Virus record (IMG/VR): IMGVR_UViG_3300032325_000464
Coordinates: 1-64,000 of that record
Direction: 5' to 3' (one strand)
DNA length: 64,000 bases
DNA from: a virus
Shown here: positions 51,820 to 61,929 of the stretch, one piece after another
Layout of the letters: the number at the start of each line of letters is the position of its first letter
Numbering within the stretch: position 1 is the first letter of the stretch
The notes under the pieces: generated by a model
What the model was told of the DNA's origin: nothing
What the model saw: only the letters and a program-made list of their open reading frames with translations
Database searches by the model: none
Program-made: the position numbers and the translations under genes

Positions 51820-51835
51820 TATAGATTATATCACA

Positions 51836-52040
51836 TTATCCACAGATTTTTTGTAGTTATTCACAGTTTTGTATTAGTTATCCACAGTTTTTTAATAGTT
51901 TTAAAAAATTTACACAATCGTAACAATTGATTTTATATATTTTGTTGCTTTTGGCTTTTTTATGTGTATAATATCTATATATATTAAATAATAAAAGATA
52001 TGTTAACTAGCTTTATAGCTTTATATATTATATATAATAA
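51836..52040. promoter_or_regulatory. oriC-like element: three DnaA boxes, an OmpR-type box and an AT-rich tract
   Basis: TTATCCACA 51836, TTATTCACA 51857, TTATCCACA 51878; TTTACA-N5-GTAACA 51909-51925; very AT-rich to 52040. Confidence 0.65.
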
Positions 52041-52062
52041 TCGGTTTTAAGTTTTCGCAGTT

Positions 52063-52743: not shown

Positions 52744-52934
52744 GTATGGAAAAAGAAAAAGTAGTCGAAATGATGACTAATTTTGTAATTAATCTAAATA
52801 GAGAAGAAATGGCTAAAACTGGTCAACTAAATCAAACCCAGATAGATCAAATGATTCAGCAAGTAACAGAGTCAATCTATATGATTAACTCAAAAATATA
52901 TGATCTGCTAGATGATAATGGAATTATTTCATAA
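52737..52934 (+). CDS. Hypothetical protein
   Basis: Coupled ORF. Confidence 0.55.
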   Translation: MVSMEKEKVVEMMTNFVINLNREEMAKTGQLNQTQIDQMIQQVTESIYMINSKIYDLLDDNGIIS

Positions 52935-53116
52935 TGGTAGATAAGGTCCCATATGTAAAAGATTATCAGAATAAAGCAGTTCTGGAATCATATCTAGTAA
53001 AAGGTTATGGATCAAGAGAGATTGCTAAAGACTATCATGTATCATATAAGCTTGTTAATTTATGGTTGTTACAACATGGACTCATCAGACCAACGTCAGA
53101 GCTGGCTCTTCCGTAA
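52934..53116 (+). CDS. Small HTH DNA-binding protein
   Basis: SREIAKDYHVSYKLVNLWL..HG. Confidence 0.65.
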   Translation: MVDKVPYVKDYQNKAVLESYLVKGYGSREIAKDYHVSYKLVNLWLLQHGLIRPTSELALP

Positions 53117-54168: not shown

Positions 54169-54443
54169 TCTGAACTCCTTTCTTTCTAACTACTTATACA
54201 CTATCACCACCTACCGACATTTATGCTCATTTTACTAAACATTTTTATACAAACTTTTGCCCTCTTTTTTGTAGGGTATCTACAAGAACGACACGCCCGA
54301 GTGAGCGCGGGCCTGTGGATAACTATGTGTATAACTCTTTATAAGAACGTTATAAAAAACCCCCTAATTCCTGGCGTGTCGCTTGACAAATGTCGTAGGC
54401 CTATGATAGATTTTTACTAACAACAAAAGAAAAGGATAATCAA

Positions 54444-54858
54444 ATGACAGTAGAAGTAATGTTTCACGATGGTTCAGCAATCTACCCTAGCTATGACCCA
54501 GAACACCGCAAAACTATTTTAGAATTCTACGCTAACCTTTTTGATAAGGGTGAAATTATGTCTTGGAAGGTAATCTAATGATGAGTCGCAAAGACTATGA
54601 GGCAATTGCCGAAATAATCAAAACATACAATCTACAACTTCCAGAAATTACTTTGGAAAGTATTGTGAATGACTTTTGTGAAATGCTAACAGAAGATAAC
54701 CCACGGTTTGACGCTAACCGTTTTCGTGTTGCTGCTATGGAGGTAAACTAATGATGTTTTACAACGGATTCAATCTAATGATTGACCTAATACTAATTGC
54801 TGTTGTGTATGTAATTGCTCACGGCATTGGATACCGCAAAAATAAAACACCATTCTAA
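54444..54858 (+). CDS. Early module 1: three small ORFs
   Basis: 54444-54578, 54578-54751 (MSRKDY..DNPRFD.NRF), 54751-54858 (TM peptide ending KTPF); TAATG coupling. Confidence 0.7.
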
Positions 54859-55020
54859 CGGCGTGTTGATTTGACAGATCCCTCGAAAGAGGGCGCGGGC
54901 CTGTGGATAACCCTGTGAACAACTCCGTTATGAACTTGTTATGAAACACCCCAAAAGTATGCCAGAAATGTCAGTGGTTTGTGATAGGGTTTTTAGTAAG
55001 CCAAAAGAAAGGAATACCAA

Positions 55021-55589
55021 ATGGATAAGATGTGTGTTTACTGCGAGAGTGTTTTCACTAACGATACTATTGTTTGCCACAACTGTAATGAGTATGACGG
55101 AATGATGCCGTTGGAAAAAGCGGTTGACTATCTCAACCTTGACCCTAATGACTTTTACTAAAATGTCAGACCCCTATACTAAGTTTATAGTAATCAGAAA
55201 GGATAACAGATGAAGCAATCAGTAATCACAGACACCACCATAAGCACTATTGTTGCTAAGGCAGAAGATGTCATTGACAGACCTCTAACCTACATGGAGA
55301 ACGCACTTATAGAGTATGTAGTTGACCAGATTCGTTTAGGGTTGGTAGAGAAATGACAATCGAAGAACTAGAAACTTTGATTTACCAAATTGACCTAATG
55401 CTAACTGAAAGTGTTAGCCAACTATTCACAACACCAGAGGAGAAATAAATGGAACTAGGTTTGATTCTTATTTTTATTGCTGTTGGCGTTTCAATTTTTG
55501 TTGGAACTTCGGTTGCCACAATTTTATTTTTGCTACAAGAAAATAACAGACTTGGCGAAGAGCTAGAAAAAAACGAAACCCCATTCTAA
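55021..55589 (+). CDS. Early module 2: four small ORFs
   Basis: 55021-55161 (CxxC..CxxC), 55210-55356, 55353-55448, 55449-55589 (TM peptide ending ETPF); AAAGGA RBSs. Confidence 0.7.
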
Positions 55590-55713
55590 ACGACACGCCC
55601 GAGAGGGCGCGGCCCATCGCAGGATAATAAATAACCTTAAGAATATTTTAAGATCTCCCCCAAAATGTCCTAGGTTAGTGATAAGATAATCTTATTAACG
55701 AAAGGAAACCCCA

Positions 55714-56235
55714 ATGACTAACCATGTAGAGATTTATTCAGAGATTGCAAGTCGTGCAACATTCGGCCAGGTAGAGCAGGCAACTAAGTGGTACCTTGAC
55801 GCAGAGACAGTAGCACGTGAAGTTGCAGCCAACCTAGGCGTGACACTTGAAGTAGGTGCAACTATTGTTTCAGCATTCAGCCCTCGTGAGCGCTGGGCAC
55901 GTAATGTTTCTAATGCTATCAAGTTTTCACTAGGCGAACATGTTACCGCTCTAGGCAATAACATTCGCATGGCTAACGCTGCATTTGACTTAGGCTTCAA
56001 GGCTTTGAATGGTCAGAAGACTAATGCATTTGCTAAGGCTATTGCAGGCAATGAAGAATCAGTTGTGATTGACGTATGGATGTTGCGAGCAGTTGGTATT
56101 GAGAAGAAGACACCTAACCAGTCTGGCTATAACGAACTTGCTAAAGCAGTGACTACTGTTGCAGTTAAGCATGGCATGACACCACGTGCAATGCAAGCCC
56201 TAATCTGGATTGTTGTTAGAGGAAGTGGAGAGTGA
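55714..56235 (+). CDS. Alpha-helical DNA-glycosylase-like (DUF7178-like) protein
   Basis: WY..A, SAFSPRERW..N, KT.AF, VIDVWMLRA, QALIW. Confidence 0.6.
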   Translation: MTNHVEIYSEIASRATFGQVEQATKWYLDAETVAREVAANLGVTLEVGATIVSAFSPRERWARNVSNAIKFSLGEHVTALGNNIRMANAAFDLGFKALNGQKTNAFAKAIAGNEESVVIDVWMLRAVGIEKKTPNQSGYNELAKAVTTVAVKHGMTPRAMQALIWIVVRGSGE

Positions 56236-56272
56236 TTGACAACAAAACCCTAGTATGGGATAATGGTAAGTA

Positions 56273-56407
56273 GTGGAGTATTATATTTGGTTGCCAGTAT
56301 TTGTTTTGTTGTTTTTACTTTTGCTTTTTGCCCTGCTTCCAATTTTTGTTGGCATAATTTTCTTTCTAGAATATTTGGCAGAAATATTTAGCAAAATAAA
56401 AAGCTGA
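56273..56407 (+). CDS. Very hydrophobic membrane peptide
   Basis: MEYYIWLPVFVLLFLLLLFALLPIFVGIIFFLEYLAEIFSKIKS after a TTGACA-N17-GATAAT promoter. Confidence 0.5.
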   Translation: MEYYIWLPVFVLLFLLLLFALLPIFVGIIFFLEYLAEIFSKIKS

Positions 56408-56526
56408 CAGACACTCACCGATCTGGAGGGCGCGGCACTTTTTCTATCAGAAGTCAATTACGTTATGCATTAAAAATCTCCTAGAATATCCCCCAAAATG
56501 TCTGATGGTCATGCTAAGATAAATCT

Positions 56527-56682
56527 ATGAAGCTAGGAAAAGGTAATGAGGCAAGACGTAAGGCAGAAAGCCAAGCGCTATTCTTTACTATGCTCAAAGC
56601 CCCTCACCTAGTAGCAACCCCCAAGAAATACAAAGGAAGCCGTCAGTCTAACAAGGCTAAGGCAATAAAGGAAAGTGAATAA
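56527..56682 (+). CDS. Small basic leaderless protein
   Basis: MKLGKGNEARRK...PKKYKGSRQSNK; ATG 6 nt after TAAGAT. Confidence 0.6.
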   Translation: MKLGKGNEARRKAESQALFFTMLKAPHLVATPKKYKGSRQSNKAKAIKESE

Positions 56683-56822
56683 TGTACAGTTATATCTGTC
56701 AGGATTGTAATCGCTTTATCAACGGAGTTGAGACAATTTACTCCTATGCCCTCAAAAATGTCTGTGGCAGATGTTATGCTATTCAGGCAGGACACCCCTC
56801 AACAAGAAAGCTGGTAAAGTAA
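56682..56822 (+). CDS. Small zinc-finger protein
   Basis: CQDC..CGRC; coupled both sides. Confidence 0.55.
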   Translation: MYSYICQDCNRFINGVETIYSYALKNVCGRCYAIQAGHPSTRKLVK

Positions 56823-57016
56823 TGCCAAAGTATAATGTAGCAGTTCAGTTATCAGGTAATGATGGAAACGCATTCTCAGTAATGGGAGCCGTAAAGTCTG
56901 CCCTCAAAAAAGCTGGAGCAAGTAGAGAAGAACTTGACGAATACGTATCAGACTCAATGTCTGGCGACTATGACAACTTATTGCGTGTAGCAATGGAATG
57001 GGTAAAGGTAAAGTAA
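56822..57016 (+). CDS. Small protein (DGNAF..SGDYDNLL motif)
   Basis: Motif recognised from phage/ICE hypothetical proteins; coupled start. Confidence 0.7.
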   Translation: MPKYNVAVQLSGNDGNAFSVMGAVKSALKKAGASREELDEYVSDSMSGDYDNLLRVAMEWVKVK

Positions 57017-57297
57017 TGGGAATGATGACAGCAATGGACTTGGCAGGTAGCGAAGTCTCATTAGAGCAACAACTATCAATTCACTTTAGTAGCAACTGTT
57101 ATCCACCAATTCCACAACAGATGATTCCAACAGCTATTGCAGCGATTGACGCTTGTTGGGAAGAAGACTATGACTTGATGATACCGTTGCCAGATGGAGT
57201 ATCTTTCAGAGGACAGACTGAAGTGTCTGCTAGAAATGTTGTTGAGTCTTACAGGCTTGACGCCTGGTTGGTTGATTACTACGAAGATGAAGAGTAG
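57016..57297 (+). CDS. Acidic hypothetical protein (H..NCYPPIP)
   Basis: Coupled ORF. Confidence 0.7.
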   Translation: MGMMTAMDLAGSEVSLEQQLSIHFSSNCYPPIPQQMIPTAIAAIDACWEEDYDLMIPLPDGVSFRGQTEVSARNVVESYRLDAWLVDYYEDEE

Positions 57298-57507
57298 CTA
57301 ACGCTGCCCCAGAAATGGGGCGCGGCCCAGGATCAGTCAAAAGTCAAACCGACACGCCCTTAAGAAGATAACAATTTATTCCCCAAATCGTTATAATTAT
57401 TTTGCCTTTGGGGGTAGATAAATGTCGGTGGTTAGTGGTAAAATAAACCTATCAACAAAAGTTGGTAATAAAAACAAAACAGTCCCTCTGGGGCGGAACG
57501 GAAGCAA

Positions 57508-57660
57508 ATGTCAAACGCAACTCTAACTGTTGGCTCACAGTTCACCACTCTAAAGTCTGGAGTATCAGGCACAATTCAGGAAATCGTAAACAACAAGAAC
57601 GGCACTCAGCGTGTTCGCCTTGATGTAAACGGACAGCCACGCTGGACTACTGTAAAGTAA
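57508..57660 (+). CDS. Small beta-barrel (SH3-like) protein
   Basis: MSNATLTVGSQFTTLKSGVSGTIQEI...RWTTVK. Confidence 0.6.
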   Translation: MSNATLTVGSQFTTLKSGVSGTIQEIVNNKNGTQRVRLDVNGQPRWTTVK

Positions 57661-57808
57661 TAAACTAATTATTGTTGTGGCGTTAGACTACATAAAAGGG
57701 TGAATCAGAGTCTAGTTGAGAACCCCTGCCACTAACAATAAATGTCAGACCCTAATGATAAAATAATGAAGTAAACAAAACCCCACAAGTAAAGGAAGCA
57801 ATAAAATT

Positions 57809-58258
57809 ATGGCTAGAACTATGTCAGTAAAAATCCCTGTATCCGCACTAATCTCAGACATTGAGAAGTCTATTGCCAAGATTGACGAAGCAATTACAAA
57901 CTACGCATCAGACCGAAAGAAGTATGAGGTAGATGTTGCCGCATACAAAGAAAGTGTTGCTGAGTTTGTTTCTAATTTCATTAGCAAGAACGCATCAAGC
58001 ATTGGCTATGACTACGAAAGTCTAATCCGTATCAACCACGCTTACAATGGCAAGGTAGAGTTGATACTTGACAAGGACTCCATTGAGGGTTTCCCTGAGA
58101 AGCCAGAAGAGCCAAGCAAGCCAAATGAGAAAGAGTGGTTTGGTCGTGAACACCAGACACGCAAACAAATCCTAGAGCGTAATCTCAAGGTGCTGCGTAT
58201 GACTACACAGGAAGAAGTTTCTGCTAGTTCATACTCCTCAGTAATGGAACTAATCTAA
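57809..58258 (+). CDS. Hypothetical protein
   Basis: AAAGGA RBS; own TGTC promoter. Confidence 0.75.
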   Translation: MARTMSVKIPVSALISDIEKSIAKIDEAITNYASDRKKYEVDVAAYKESVAEFVSNFISKNASSIGYDYESLIRINHAYNGKVELILDKDSIEGFPEKPEEPSKPNEKEWFGREHQTRKQILERNLKVLRMTTQEEVSASSYSSVMELI

Positions 58259-58506
58259 ATAATCAAACAACCTGAGCAAGTTGTAAAACTGCTTCCCGAA
58301 TTGGGGTAGCGACTAGACGGGTAAAATAATTTCGCTCCACATCCCCCTCACAAAAGCTGAAGATCGCAAGATCACAAATACTGAGAGGGGGAAAAGGTGG
58401 GCGCGGCCCCCATAACGAATTGGTAACAAGTTTAAGAAACACTATTAAGAGCCCTTGTAAATGTCAGTGGTTGGCTGTAAAATATAGCTATAACGAAAGG
58501 AACCCC

Positions 58507-59309
58507 ATGGACGAGCAAGCAGAAGAAATCAAACAGGACCTAGCCGACTACTATGCTAACCCACAAGAATACACACTCTTTGACTTTGAGGAAATCTTTC
58601 AGGACAGGGACCCATTTGAATTCCTATAATGTCGTAGGGTCCTGGTAGAATTCAAACAAATAACGAAAGGAAAATAATGAGCTTACTAAATAACATTGGA
58701 TACGTTTCCTATGACGGAAACTATGGAGCTGAAGCGGACCTACTAGTTTTCGACAGCAATGACCTCACTCTACAACAGTGGGAAACCCTAGGTGAGATAA
58801 ACGACAACTCTAGGTATGAGTATGTTGAAGCTATTTTTGCAGGTAAAGACCTATCTGAGTGGGAGGGCTAATGCTACGTACAGATGAGACTTACTGGAAA
58901 ATCAAAGAGTACACAGATGAGGCCAAGGGTATAGCTTGGGACACATGTCACAAAATTTATATTCTTATGGATGACAATCAGGTAGCGCTAATGCGTGAGT
59001 ATGAATATGACCCAATCATCACGTCAGAACAAATAAACCCAGCCGAAATGGCAACGGTTGCAGCTGTTTGGTTTGAAAAGTCTTGTGCACTAAGATTTGT
59101 AAATGCAGTCTACAGTGATACTTCAATTGGACACGAGGGTTTTGTCAACGTCATTGCGCAGTTTGAAGGCGATGAAGAAGAAGACGATGAATATGATGAG
59201 GATGAAGATGAGTAATATTTGGGAGCCAGCTCCAGGTGGAGTCTGGGATAGCTTCTTCCGTGAAGCAGGCTTTGACAATGGAGATAGCGAAGACGACGAA
59301 GACCTGTAG
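58507..59309 (+). CDS. Cluster of four highly acidic small proteins
   Basis: 58507-58629, 58677-58871, 58871-59215 (WDTCHKIY), 59208-59309. Confidence 0.7.
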
Positions 59310-59501
59310 TGCATTCCCTTACTTCCTTTCTGGAATGTACTACCGTCCTGGCCATGACGTAAATCTGGCCACCTTTTGTGCGCGGCCCACTTAACAGATC
59401 CATAACAACTTTAAGAAGAATTAAGATGTTTCCCTAAAACCCCTTGTAAATGTCGGTGGGTAGCTGTAAAATGATACTACCCGAAAAGAAAGGAACCCCC
59501 A

Positions 59502-60005
59502 ATGGGAACCAGAAACCTAACAGTAGTAAAGAATAAAGCAGGGAAAAACAAGATTGCTCAATACGGACAATGGGACGGCTACCCAAGTTATTCAGGTGTT
59601 CAAGCCCTAGCATTTCTAAGAGACGAAGGCAACCAAGCCCTGCTACAAGCAAAGCTAGACCTTGTCCAGTTTGTTGGTGATGAGGAAGTAGATACCCTGT
59701 ATAAGCAGTATGAAACTACCGATTGGGAGAATAAAGATTTCCTAAACGCATACCCTGGACTTCACAGAGATACTGGTGTTGGTATCCTATCAGTAGTTGC
59801 TAACGCTGTTGCTCCTGTCAAGACTGTTGATAACACAGAGTTTGCTAAAGATGAATTGTTTTGTGAAGGTATCTTTGAGGTAGACTTCAAGACTAACAAG
59901 TTTATTACTGTCTATGCTGACAAGAAGGTTGAGTTTGACCTTGCCACTCTACCAACAGATGAAGAATACCTAGCCCAGTGGGAAGTGCAGCAAGTTGCTT
60001 CATAA
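59502..60005 (+). CDS. Phage protein with MGTR...QY.QWDGYP motif
   Basis: Motif recognition; RBS. Confidence 0.75.
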   Translation: MGTRNLTVVKNKAGKNKIAQYGQWDGYPSYSGVQALAFLRDEGNQALLQAKLDLVQFVGDEEVDTLYKQYETTDWENKDFLNAYPGLHRDTGVGILSVVANAVAPVKTVDNTEFAKDELFCEGIFEVDFKTNKFITVYADKKVEFDLATLPTDEEYLAQWEVQQVAS

Positions 60006-60602
60006 TCTAGATACCAAATACCTAACAGGGGACATCGCAAAGGATGTTCAGTTTATAAAAGATAACCTTAGTATTGATGACGAAGAGTTCTTTAGAAGGG
60101 CTATGGCTAACATAATGTCTGAGGGTAATGCTAGAATTGACTTACTTACTGGAGAGGAACTAAACAAACTATGAAGAAAACTTGGCAAGTAGAGTATAGT
60201 GCTACCTATTGGGTAGAAGCAGAAACAGAAGATGAAGCAATTGAATTGGCTATTGAATCACACGCTGACCTACCAGACGGTAGTTGGGAAGCAATGATTG
60301 ACCCCTATGATAGCAACAACTTCAATACGCTAGGAGAAAAGTGATTATCGAATGCCCCAACCATGAGGGCAACTTTGACTGTACACCATTTTGCAATTTG
60401 TGTGAAGGAGAACAAGAGTATGTCAGTGAGTGAACTAGAACAAATCGGGTATGAAGAAGGAATGAAGGATACCTATGCTTACATTATCAATACTATACGT
60501 AAGGCAATAGAGAATCCTTCACTTGATGTCATACCGTCAAAAATGGCACTACAAGTCCTGTTGGCAAGTTTAGAAGCTGACAGGGAAGAGAGCACGGTCT
60601 AA
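59995..60602 (+). CDS. Four small coupled ORFs
   Basis: 59995-60174, 60171-60344 (VEAETEDEA), 60341-60433 (C-P-H/C..CxxC), 60420-60602. Confidence 0.6.
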
Positions 60603-60752
60603 GCTCCCCGAAAGGGGCGCGGCCCCAATATAACAGATCTATAACAACTTTAAGAACCTTAAGAATGTTTCCCCAGATGGCTTGACATTGTCGGTGGGTC
60701 ATGGGATAATAGTCTTACTAAACATTCACCCCTAAAAGAAAGTTGAACACAA

Positions 60753-61766
60753 ATGGCTCATGACCTAGAATCCGCAAACGGCCAGACTGCTTTTGCTTCA
60801 TTGCGACAGCCAGCTTGGCATGGTCTTGGAACTGTTTTCCAAGACGAGGTAGACACATCAGAAATGTTGTCTCTGGCTCACCTAAACGATTGGAACGTCC
60901 GTCTTGAAGATGTAGAGACTCCAGAGGGTTTCAACAGCGACAAGTCTTATTCATTCGTGACAAGAACTAACCCATTCGACAGAAACACTAACGACATTCT
61001 TGGTGTTGTTGGTGAACGCTATGTCCCTCTTCAGAATGAGGACTTATTTTCATTCGGAGACAACCTGCTAGACGGCGGAGGTCGTTGGGAAACTGCTGGC
61101 TCTATCAAGGGTGGGCGTGTTGTCTTTGGCTCTATCGCATTGGATAACTCAATTACCCTAGACCCAAATGGCATTGCTGATAAGATTGATAACTATCTTC
61201 TAATCAACACTAGCCACGACGGCTCTATTGCGATTCAGGCTTCTATCACACCTGTTCGTGTTGTTTGTGCCAACACTCTAAACCTTGCTCTATCTTCATT
61301 CAAGGGCAAGAAAGATGTCAAGCAAACTTTCAAGATTCGCCACACACAGACTGCCGAAGGTAAAATTGCGGTTGCTCGTGAGGCTCTTGGACTTGCTCAC
61401 AAATACATTGACGAGTTCTCAACTATGGCTAACGAAATGATTCAGACTGAAATTACTAAGGCTCAGTTTGATAAGATTGTTGAACTTGCCTACCCTGCCC
61501 CTGCTAAGGACGCCAAGGGTTCACAGAAAAAGTATGACAGCAAAATTGATTTGCTTCAGTCTATTTATGTTGGCGATTTCAATAACACCATTAGCGGAAC
61601 TGCTTGGGGTGCTTTCAATGCTCTAACCGAAAGACTAGACTGGTATCGCAATTCCCGAGGCGGAAAGAACGAAAGCATTCTTGCTTCTGCTTCTGGCTTT
61701 GACCCAATGATAAACGCTGAGAAGAATCGTTTGATGAAAGTTGTTCGCCAAGCCGTAATGGCATAA
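60753..61766 (+). CDS. DUF932 phage/plasmid-like protein
   Basis: AWHGLG, LGVVG.RY.PLQN, ETAGS..GG, SHDGS, TPVRVVCANTL, IRHT, GTAWGAFNA. Confidence 0.88.
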   Translation: MAHDLESANGQTAFASLRQPAWHGLGTVFQDEVDTSEMLSLAHLNDWNVRLEDVETPEGFNSDKSYSFVTRTNPFDRNTNDILGVVGERYVPLQNEDLFSFGDNLLDGGGRWETAGSIKGGRVVFGSIALDNSITLDPNGIADKIDNYLLINTSHDGSIAIQASITPVRVVCANTLNLALSSFKGKKDVKQTFKIRHTQTAEGKIAVAREALGLAHKYIDEFSTMANEMIQTEITKAQFDKIVELAYPAPAKDAKGSQKKYDSKIDLLQSIYVGDFNNTISGTAWGAFNALTERLDWYRNSRGGKNESILASASGFDPMINAEKNRLMKVVRQAVMA

Positions 61767-61929
61767 GCGACACGCAGACCTCCTGGCTTGACAGCTGGGA
61801 GGATCTGTGGCGCGGCCCCCTTATCACTAATAAGATATTAACTTATAAAAAACCTATTAAGAAGTCCTTGACTTTTTCCCCAAAACGTGAGAGAATATAT
61901 TTATCAAACCATTCAACCCTAGGAGATAA

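Follow-up and report, generated by a model that had tools for sequence, protein, structure and literature searches.

Early-gene control cassettes with DnaA-, MtrA-, WhiA- and PafBC-type elements in an uncultured phage

In the lytic Bacillus phage phi29, boxes for the host master regulator Spo0A lie at early promoters and origins, and the state of the host gates development. In mycobacteria DnaA and MtrA bind jointly at oriC; the DnaA box has the consensus TT(A/T)TNCACA, with TTATCCACA as its high-affinity form, and WalR, a regulator of Firmicutes, reads the box TGTWAH-N5-TGTWAH. Here we analyse an array of early-gene spacers in the first 64 kb (the window, meaning the whole stretch analysed) of a 77,957-bp virus contig from IMG/VR, IMGVR_UViG_3300032325_000464, with a GC content of 39%. 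Whereas phi29 relies on one regulator and few sites, these spacers form a repeated cassette in which boxes resembling the sites of several host regulators recur.

The closest described arrangement of DnaA boxes is that of T5-like phages with first-step transfer, in whose left terminal repeat the boxes are always paired, with a 3-bp gap (Davison, bioRxiv 10.1101/866236). Our locus shares with them same-strand pairs with this gap in non-coding early or terminal-repeat DNA of a large lytic siphovirus, and host DnaA as the presumed reader. In T5, however, eight boxes stand at one locus with inverted repeats as a proposed injection-stop signal, whereas here such pairs are found again and again, in separate cassettes and at a fixed distance upstream of promoters, together with WhiA-, MtrA- and PafBC-type elements, in a phage with a probable actinobacterial host.

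For WhiA, ChIP-seq of M. tuberculosis WhiA and WhiB2 and in vitro IDAP-seq of WhiA gave the 8-bp consensus GACACGCC; the earlier motif was CGACACGCCGn, and the M. smegmatis form is cGACACGc (PMC13473873). WhiA acts from either strand at a variable distance upstream of the -35 element, and WhiB bridges to region 4 of sigma-A (PMC10243135; PMC3781837). As in the promoters described for sepX of S. venezuelae (PMC10243135) and for M. tuberculosis (PMC13473873), GACAC(GCC) lies upstream of the -35 on either strand here, and relatives of the phage encode WhiB. The differences are that these are phage promoters and not those of cell-division genes, that most boxes of the window lie far upstream, and that the contig is without WhiB.

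PafBC-dependent DNA-damage promoters (RecA-NDp), recA P1 among them, have the consensus tGTCgg(N10)tA(N3)T and, in the host, no -35 element (PMC8635444). The same geometry, tGTCgg-N10-tAnnnT, is found here, and at the damage-inducible recA P1 promoter of M. tuberculosis a WhiA peak lies 42 bp upstream (PMC13473873), which corresponds to the proximal slot of our cassettes; many of the phage promoters, unlike those of the host, retain a TTGACA or TTGTAA, together with an extended -10. MtrA sites of actinobacteria, in the accounts of PMC3353115 and PMC5650626, consist of two 6-8-bp direct repeats with an 11-bp period. The C. glutamicum site, in the form that PMC3353115 cites from Brocker 2011 (hereafter the quoted consensus), is A/T-rich, (A/G)TAACAATttn(A/G)TAACAAT; the Streptomyces site is G+C-rich, KTRACC-N5-GTKAC (PMC5650626). 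Our repeats share with the quoted form the RTAACAAT-type half-site, the 11-bp period and the place upstream of the -35 where MtrA activates, and, as at the mycobacterial oriC, they occur together with DnaA boxes; they differ from the quoted form in that the window sites carry 3-4 mismatches, and the Streptomyces form is unmatched.

The Streptomyces BE-cluster phage Jay2Jay (NC_029098) carries a homologous block with the DUF932 gene and many small genes, each gap of which holds a hairpin, a GC-rich word and a promoter; there, in contrast, the word is CCGGNCCGGACA, and both DnaA boxes and a regular PafBC-type element are absent. Searches of the literature turned up neither an account of the architecture reported here nor one of WhiA, MtrA or PafBC sites in phage promoters.

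The early-gene array and its cassettes

The contig, estimated by CheckV to be 69% complete, encodes a portal, a prohead protease, a capsid protein, a 2,834-aa tape measure protein and a PolIII alpha subunit. Proteins of Streptomyces BE-cluster phages share 54-55% identity with the DUF932 protein of the contig (60753-61766); in those phages the gene is located within the long terminal repeat. The phage analysed here is distant kin of that cluster. We found 39 related loci in IMG/VR, with DUF932 identities of 66-96%. The earlier note on this DNA had proposed looking for a phage whiB. Of five large relatives, four have a WhiB that passes the Pfam cut-off; its best match among solved structures is WhiB from the S. 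venezuelae complex of WhiA and WhiB (8dy7_H, E 1e-6). No whiB turned up in the 69%-complete contig itself. WhiB is regarded as a marker of Actinobacteria and their phages (PMC10202952). The WhiB of the relatives and the kinship to Streptomyces BE phages make an actinobacterial host very probable, and the phage's own base composition suggests a low-GC one. A search of bacterial genomes with the phage GDP-mannose dehydratase gave matches in scattered phyla, with no actinobacterial entry.

Genes left of 54.17 kb lie on the minus strand, and after this strand switch a plus-strand array of small genes extends from 54.2 kb to about 65 kb, with spacers of 110-190 bp. Pfam gave nothing for most of the small early proteins. 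The spacers share one order, namely a hairpin, a GC word, a distal repeat pair, a second repeat pair, a C-run and then the promoter elements: a -35 (TTGACA or TTGTAA), a TGTCRGTGG element and a -10 that often has an upstream TG. In modules 1-2 the distal slot right after the GC word holds DnaA-type pairs with a 12-bp period, and in modules 6-8 this position is occupied by 6-5-6 repeats of 11-bp period; modules 1-2 and the relatives have their 11-bp-period repeats in the slot that follows. DnaA-type pairs and 6-5-6 repeats can take each other's place in adjacent slots of one common cassette. This point, like the PafBC-type promoter element, had escaped the earlier note. Across the family, with positions counted from the TGTC element, the range -100 to -70 holds the DnaA boxes, -60 to -30 the 11-bp repeats and TTAMGA pairs, and -20 to -17 the inverted GACACGCC box.

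On balance, we consider it probable that the cassettes are host-regulator inputs to the early operons, read by DnaA, an MtrA-type regulator, WhiA and PafBC. Each of the short operons has upstream of it a control cassette of 110-190 bp that follows one plan. Its head, a hairpin often with a WhiA-type box and TTGACA, ends in the lineage-private GC word; a distal slot at about -128 to -95 from the predicted start can hold two DnaA boxes 3 bp apart, a middle slot at about -90 to -60 holds MtrA-like RTAACA/GTTAY repeats of 11-bp period, TTAAGA pairs or both, and a proximal slot near -42 can hold a WhiA box. The promoter itself is of sigma-A type, with a -35, a TGTCRG that stands 10 nt upstream of the -10, and in many cases an extended -10. 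The operons would most likely be transcribed by the host polymerase carrying its housekeeping sigma factor, and host proteins would read the boxes; candidates are DnaA, a response regulator of MtrA type, WhiA together with host or phage WhiB, and PafBC. Since the cassettes hold different subsets of boxes, the operons may respond differently to the replication, division and DNA-damage state of the host. If growing numbers of phage genomes titrate the regulators, this would be a by-product and not the main purpose. What the sequences show is that the boxes are present, enriched, fixed in place, conserved in relatives, restricted to the early block and identical to published consensuses; which protein binds each box, and whether it activates or represses, is inferred.

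The elements are given below by window position.

54289..54297, plus strand: WhiA-type box CGACACGCC at the head of cassette 1, equal to the M. tuberculosis WhiA consensus
54305..54312, plus strand: GC word GCGCGGGC of cassette 1, in none of the 39 relatives
54314..54334, plus strand: DnaA pair TGTGGATAA-N3-TGTGTATAA with 12-bp period (boxes 54314, 54326), invariant in the cassette 1 alignment
54338..54355, plus strand: weak 11-bp-period pair TTTATAA-N4-GTTATAA in the MtrA-like slot, GTTA core invariant in the cassette 1 alignment
54373..54381, minus strand: WhiA-type box (GGCGTGTCG on the plus strand), 1-2 bp from the -35 TTGACA at 54383, centre about -42 from the predicted start, invariant in the cassette 1 alignment
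54383..54412, plus strand: promoter 1, with TTGACA, TGTC element and -10 TAGATT in TGTC-N12-TAnnnT geometry
54858..54876, plus strand: head of cassette 2, with degenerate WhiA-type box ACGGCGTGTTG and TTGACA, 17 nt before the CG of the GC word
54893..54900, plus strand: GC word GCGCGGGC of cassette 2
54902..54922, plus strand: DnaA pair TGTGGATAA-N3-TGTGAACAA (boxes 54902, 54914)
54924..54944, minus strand: MtrA-like pair (GTTATGA-N4-GTTATGA on the plus strand), 4 mismatches to the quoted consensus
54969..54990, plus strand: promoter 2, TGTCAG-N10-TAGGGT, in PafBC-type geometry
55591..55599, plus strand: WhiA-type box CGACACGCC of cassette 3, directly after a stop codon, forming the 5' arm of the hairpin
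55607..55614, plus strand: GC word GCGCGGCC of cassette 3
55637..55653, plus strand: TTAAGA pair
55666..55687, plus strand: promoter 3, TGTC-N12-TAAGAT
56430..56520, plus strand: cassette 4, with GC word variant GCGCGGCA, GTCAA box and promoter TGTC-N12-TAAGAT, and none of the three claimed box types (DnaA, WhiA, MtrA)
57320..57327, plus strand: GC word of cassette 5
57350..57358, plus strand: WhiA-type box CGACACGCC of cassette 5, about 100 bp upstream of the promoter 5 start
57423..57444, plus strand: promoter 5, TGTCGG-N10-TAAAAT
58401..58408, plus strand: GC word of cassette 6
58412..58430, plus strand: MtrA-like 8-3-8 direct repeat ATAACGAA-ttg-GTAACAAG, 3 mismatches to the quoted RTAACAATttnRTAACAAT
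58432..58450, plus strand: TTAAGA pair
58455..58483, plus strand: promoter 6, with TTGTAA and TGTCAG-N10-TAAAAT
59380..59387, plus strand: GC word of cassette 7
59391..59409, plus strand: MtrA-like repeat TTAACAGA-tcc-ATAACAAC, 4 mismatches to the quoted consensus; its minus strand fits TGTWAH-N5-TGTWAH
59411..59426, plus strand: TTAAGA pair
59444..59472, plus strand: promoter 7, with TTGTAA and TGTCGG-N10-TAAAAT
60617..60624, plus strand: GC word of cassette 8
60630..60648, plus strand: MtrA-like repeat ATAACAGA-tct-ATAACAAC, 3 mismatches to the quoted consensus
60650..60664, plus strand: TTAAGA pair
60682..60710, plus strand: promoter 8, of the DUF932 gene, with TTGACA, TGTCGGTGG and TGGGATAAT
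61768..61817, plus strand: head of cassette 9, with WhiA-type box CGACACGC and a hairpin holding TTGACA (61788) in its loop, 17 nt from TTGACA to the CG of GC word GCGCGGCC (61810)
61868..61896, plus strand: promoter 9, with TTGACT and extended -10 TGAGAGAAT
51836..51886, minus strand: origin-like cluster of three DnaA boxes with 21-bp period (51836, 51857, 51878)

The motifs listed by the earlier note are all present: the DnaA pairs at 54314/54326 and 54902/54914, the repeats ATAACG-aattg-GTAACA (58412), TTAACA-gatcc-ATAACA (59391) and ATAACA-gatct-ATAACA (60630), each followed by a TTAAGA pair in modules 6-8, and GACACGC at 54290, 55592, 57351 and 61769, inverted at 54374-54381 upstream of the TTGACA at 54383.

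A few arrangements within the cassettes stand apart from the box types named above. In cassette heads (54858-54900, 61768-61817) a WhiA-type box and TTGACA are followed, after 16-17 nt that often include a short hairpin, by a GC word of the form YCGNSC, an arrangement found at more than 25 sites in the relatives' loci (L009-L040); the GC word there stands at the position of a -10 hexamer yet does not fit TAnnnT. The GTCAA box is found at 56440-56470 and 57330-57350 (ATCAGAAGTCAA; GATCAGTCAAAAGTCAA), and its counterpart GATCCTGGATCAAATGTCAAG occupies the slot of the DnaA pair in several relatives.

Enrichment and conservation of the boxes

Window counts were compared with 100 dinucleotide shuffles of the 64-kb window, and family counts were made in 33 dereplicated related loci (503 kb). 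Modules 1/2 and 7/8 are paralogous copies, obvious duplicates of each other, so that recurrences of a box inside the window are not independent and the decisive evidence comes from the relatives; the family counts in turn include orthologous copies and are not fully independent.

The perfect DnaA box TGTGGATAA occurs six times in the window against 0.68 expected, a count that none of the 100 shuffles reached, and seven perfect boxes are present in the 78-kb contig. The partner box at 54326 (TGTGTATAA) fits the consensus, and that at 54914 (TGTGAACAA) has one mismatch. As boxes with one mismatch allowed are at chance level in the window (23 against 20.6 expected), the partner boxes count solely through their fixed 12-bp register. 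Among the relatives, TGTGGATAAC occurs 70 times against 0.6 expected and is present in 24 of the 33 loci; DnaA pairs with a 3-bp gap number 38 forward and 2 reverse against 0 expected. Close same-strand spacings in the family are 12 bp in 48 of 75 cases and 20-21 bp in 15, the 21-bp class corresponding to origin-like clusters, with similar 20-21-bp clusters in relatives. By their match to the published consensus these sequences are probably DnaA sites, as the earlier note had proposed, with binding by host DnaA predicted.

For the WhiA-type box, CGACACGC was found six times in the window against 0.20 expected (no shuffle reached six), and GACACGC has eight copies in the 78-kb contig. The copies of CGACACGC(C) at 54289, 55591, 57350, 61768 and 54374 (minus strand) fit the extended actinobacterial WhiA consensus, and three of them (54289, 55591, 61768) stand at the start of cassette heads, right behind stop codons. 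The most over-represented words of the family are ACGGCGTGTCG (34 against 0.01 expected), GGCGTGTCG (60 against 0.24) and CGACACGCC (43 against 0.4). The word CGACACGCC(G) is identical to both GACACGCC and the CGACACGCCGn consensus and also agrees with the M. smegmatis form, a far stronger match than the GACAC core on which the earlier note had based its WhiA assignment. At 59 family sites the inverted box lies mostly 2-3 bp upstream of TTGAC(A/T), its centre about 42 bp before the predicted start, and 25 of 47 copies of GGCGTGTCG in the relatives stand 17-20 bp upstream of the TGTC element. In the four complete relatives every copy of CGACACGCC (5-8 per genome) belongs to the early block, in a stretch of no more than 8 kb, and a reversed-pattern control gave 0. 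We take these boxes to be probable WhiA-type sites, given their match to the published consensus over 9 to 11 bases.

The PafBC-type promoter element TGTCRG-N10-TAnnnT is found in the family 233 times forward and 12 times in reverse. In the array, strict matches number six forward against about 0.7 expected (54969, 55164, 57423, 57743, 58462 and 59451), with looser TGTC-N12-TAnnnT matches at 54391, 55666, 56499 and 58630. Unlike host PafBC promoters, promoters 1, 6, 7 and 8 keep a -35 (TTGACA or TTGTAA). A further promoter of exact PafBC geometry lies on the minus strand at 54198; it faces left at the strand switch and would drive the genes of the minus strand.

Pairs of direct repeats, 6-8 bp each and of 11-bp period, are present at 58412, 59391, 60630 and 54927. 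The earlier note had read them as MtrA/WalR-type. As to WalR, strict TGTWAH-N5-TGTWAH occurs three times in the window against 0.74 expected; 5 of 100 shuffles reach that number, the repeat at 58412 falls outside the pattern, and WalR, as a regulator of Firmicutes, is not expected in an actinobacterial host. The MtrA half of the reading fits only at the level of the family, where the repeat consensus is GTTATCaaa.tGTTATaaa (on the other strand ATAACAaTTTGATAAC) and GTTAY-N6-GTTAY occurs 76 and 45 times on the two strands against about 2 per strand expected. Matches to the quoted C. glutamicum consensus number 16 with at most one mismatch (0 expected) and 46 with at most two (about 3 expected). 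The MtrA reading thus rests on this family-level fit and on the shared slot, and other OmpR-type regulators may read the repeats.

Two further elements accompany these boxes. TTAAGA-N3-7-TTAAGA occurs four times in the window against 0.18 expected, with no shuffle reaching four, and in the family TTAAGA pairs (TTACGA in relatives), spaced 9-13 bp, number 69 forward and 1 reverse against 1.4 expected. The GC word, GCGCGG[C/G]C, has ten co-oriented copies (54305-61817 plus 64405 of the contig), with the lineage-private form GCGCGGCC in cassettes 3 and 9. GCGCGGSC is absent from all 39 relatives, which have GGCCGACC, GCGCCC, GGTCGGGC, GCTCGCC or GTCGACC in its place; a scan of viral contigs for GCGCGGCC-N20-50-TTAAGAA gave single unrelated matches only and was unproductive because the word is private to this phage. 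CRP-type palindromes are absent here: a single match with one mismatch, in coding DNA, stands against 2.6 expected.

When cassette 1 is aligned with four relatives, the columns are on average 71% identical; GGCGTGTCG, TGTC, the DnaA pair and the GTTA core form invariant blocks, and the GC word is not conserved. More generally, relatives with DUF932 identities of 66-96% keep the four host-type motifs unchanged, whereas the GC word differs between lineages. Such turnover is as expected for a phage-specific reader of the GC word, with the host-type boxes held constant, and experiments could use the contrast as a ready-made internal control. Box sets differ between relatives even at orthologous promoters, that of the DUF932 gene for example, which indicates that boxes are shuffled between cassettes, and in the complete relatives the box types are confined to the early block. 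The shuffles, the relatives and the alignment together support the view that the boxes are real, conserved cis elements, of which, as the earlier note had seen, different cassettes hold different subsets.

Just upstream of the array, a plus-strand ORF of 60 aa (52934-53116) has a helix-turn-helix-like segment and no Pfam match; it is perhaps a phage-specific DNA binder for the GC word. Relatives encode a 57-78-aa protein with a below-threshold match to a helix-turn-helix of sigma-region-4 type.

Proposed host inputs and competing explanations

The reading of the cassettes as inputs from host regulators draws on the likeness of three or four unrelated motifs to host consensuses, which is unlikely as coincidence given matches over 9-22 positions, and on the fixed slots and geometry relative to promoters, which favour regulatory input over a pure sponge. 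Several observations weigh against it. Many of the promoters, with a good -35 and an extended -10, could fire without an activator. Many regulators of the OmpR family bind similar 11-bp direct repeats; the MtrA-like sites of the window, with 3-4 mismatches to the quoted consensus, are at chance level in this AT-rich genome, and the Streptomyces form KTRACC-N5-GTKAC has no match on either strand in 523 kb of the family (about 1 expected). Only one of the five WhiA-type boxes of the window (54373-54381) occupies the promoter-proximal slot, the other four lying at least 100 bp upstream, in cassette heads and partly inside hairpins; to this are added the missing whiB of the contig and the partial dependence of the family counts. 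The TTAAGA/TTACGA pairs and GTCAA boxes have no candidate reader. Finally, one complete relative has no perfect DnaA box, and the Jay2Jay terminal repeat has none of the TTATCCACA or TTGTCCACA type, so that the DnaA input is dispensable, or optional. Co-variation with the Streptomyces box, sought in Jay2Jay, was not demonstrable, its terminal repeat being without either box type.

The best surviving alternative, which we regard as unlikely, is that the boxes are operators for phage proteins, such as that encoded at 52934-53116, and that their host likeness is mimicry or coincidence. The GC word clearly behaves as a phage-specific site, most small early proteins are without a recognisable domain, and the 57-78-aa sigma-region-4-like protein of the relatives would be a possible reader. 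Such readers would nevertheless have to account for three or four unrelated motifs each equal to a different published host consensus over 9-22 positions, and constant between phage lineages where the GC word is not; moreover, no DnaA C-terminal domain was found encoded in the contig, and no sigma-70 region 2 in the contig or the four complete relatives.

A little less likely still is that the DnaA pairs act on the DNA itself, in replication start or at the entering genome end, as proposed for T5. The 3-bp gap of the T5-like pairs is the spacing that dominates here, the homologous block of BE phages lies in a terminal repeat, and the origin-like cluster at 51836-51886 is in the same genome. 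Against this stand the constant distance of the pairs upstream of promoters, right after the GC word and in many cassettes, and the complete relative that does without them. The region of the cluster (51833-52060) also contains a WalR/MtrA-type repeat at 51909-51925, followed by about 110 bp of very AT-rich DNA.

The earlier note had left a choice between combinatorial sensing and a decoy. That the array mainly soaks up DnaA, MtrA and WhiA, and so stops host replication and division, with only incidental effects on phage transcription, seems to us improbable. There are several sites of high-affinity type per genome (seven perfect DnaA boxes and eight GACACGC in 78 kb), their copies would rise with replication, and actinophages are known to interfere with the WhiB pathway, since WhiB of phage TM4 is reported, as cited in PMC10202952, to antagonise host WhiB2. 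A sponge, however, needs no fixed geometry, and yet with respect to the promoters the boxes keep to certain slots and favour one strand; the early block contains them all, so that they are not spread over the genome, and they are few, with 5-8 WhiA boxes per genome against 149-379 chromosomal sites in M. tuberculosis (PMC13473873). Of the two options, the fixed slots favour regulatory input and speak against a pure decoy.

Chance resemblance, with boxes inherited without function of their own in AT-rich repeated spacers, is suggested by the duplicated modules 1/2 and 7/8 and by the chance-level counts of one-mismatch DnaA boxes and own-genome MtrA-like matches, but it is very improbable in view of perfect-box counts reached by none of 100 shuffles, boxes that stay invariant while their flanks diverge, and at least 100-fold enrichment in 33 loci; it is largely refuted for the DnaA and WhiA boxes and remains for individual MtrA-like sites of the window.

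Taking the reading as host-regulator inputs further, we offer as a tentative extension, in which we place clearly less confidence, that a widespread family of uncultured, probably freshwater actinobacterial phages runs a 'switchboard', with each small operon wired to a combination of its own of host regulators for replication (DnaA), for envelope and division (MtrA, WhiA/WhiB) and for DNA damage (PafBC). Phage WhiB would partner host WhiA to switch on promoters with WhiA boxes, and the phage would in this way sense the stage of the host cell cycle and copy the logic of recA P1. If the host-input reading is true, the array would be the first known case of a phage whose early genes are controlled through sites for several essential cell-cycle regulators of actinobacteria, and it would extend the idea of the DnaA pair from T5 to an unrelated host phylum. 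It would also supply a small, naturally occurring collection of high-affinity sites for proteins with regulons that are difficult to delimit, the published 5-bp WhiA motif being too short to predict targets, and a testable model of how lytic phages time themselves to host state in slow-growing uncultured lake Actinobacteria.

Further elements of the contig

Just past the window, after the last cassette promoter, positions 64,535-64,660 of the contig form a strongly structured non-coding stretch with three hairpins and a terminator-like end (minimum free energy -61.5 kcal/mol, z = -7.0 against shuffles); it has no Rfam match and is a candidate small RNA. Further on, at 68-74 kb, lies a sugar-modification cluster encoding a glycosyltransferase, a GDP-mannose 4,6-dehydratase and Stealth-like and sulfotransferase-like proteins, and five tRNA genes are located on the minus strand at about 74.0-75.6 kb.

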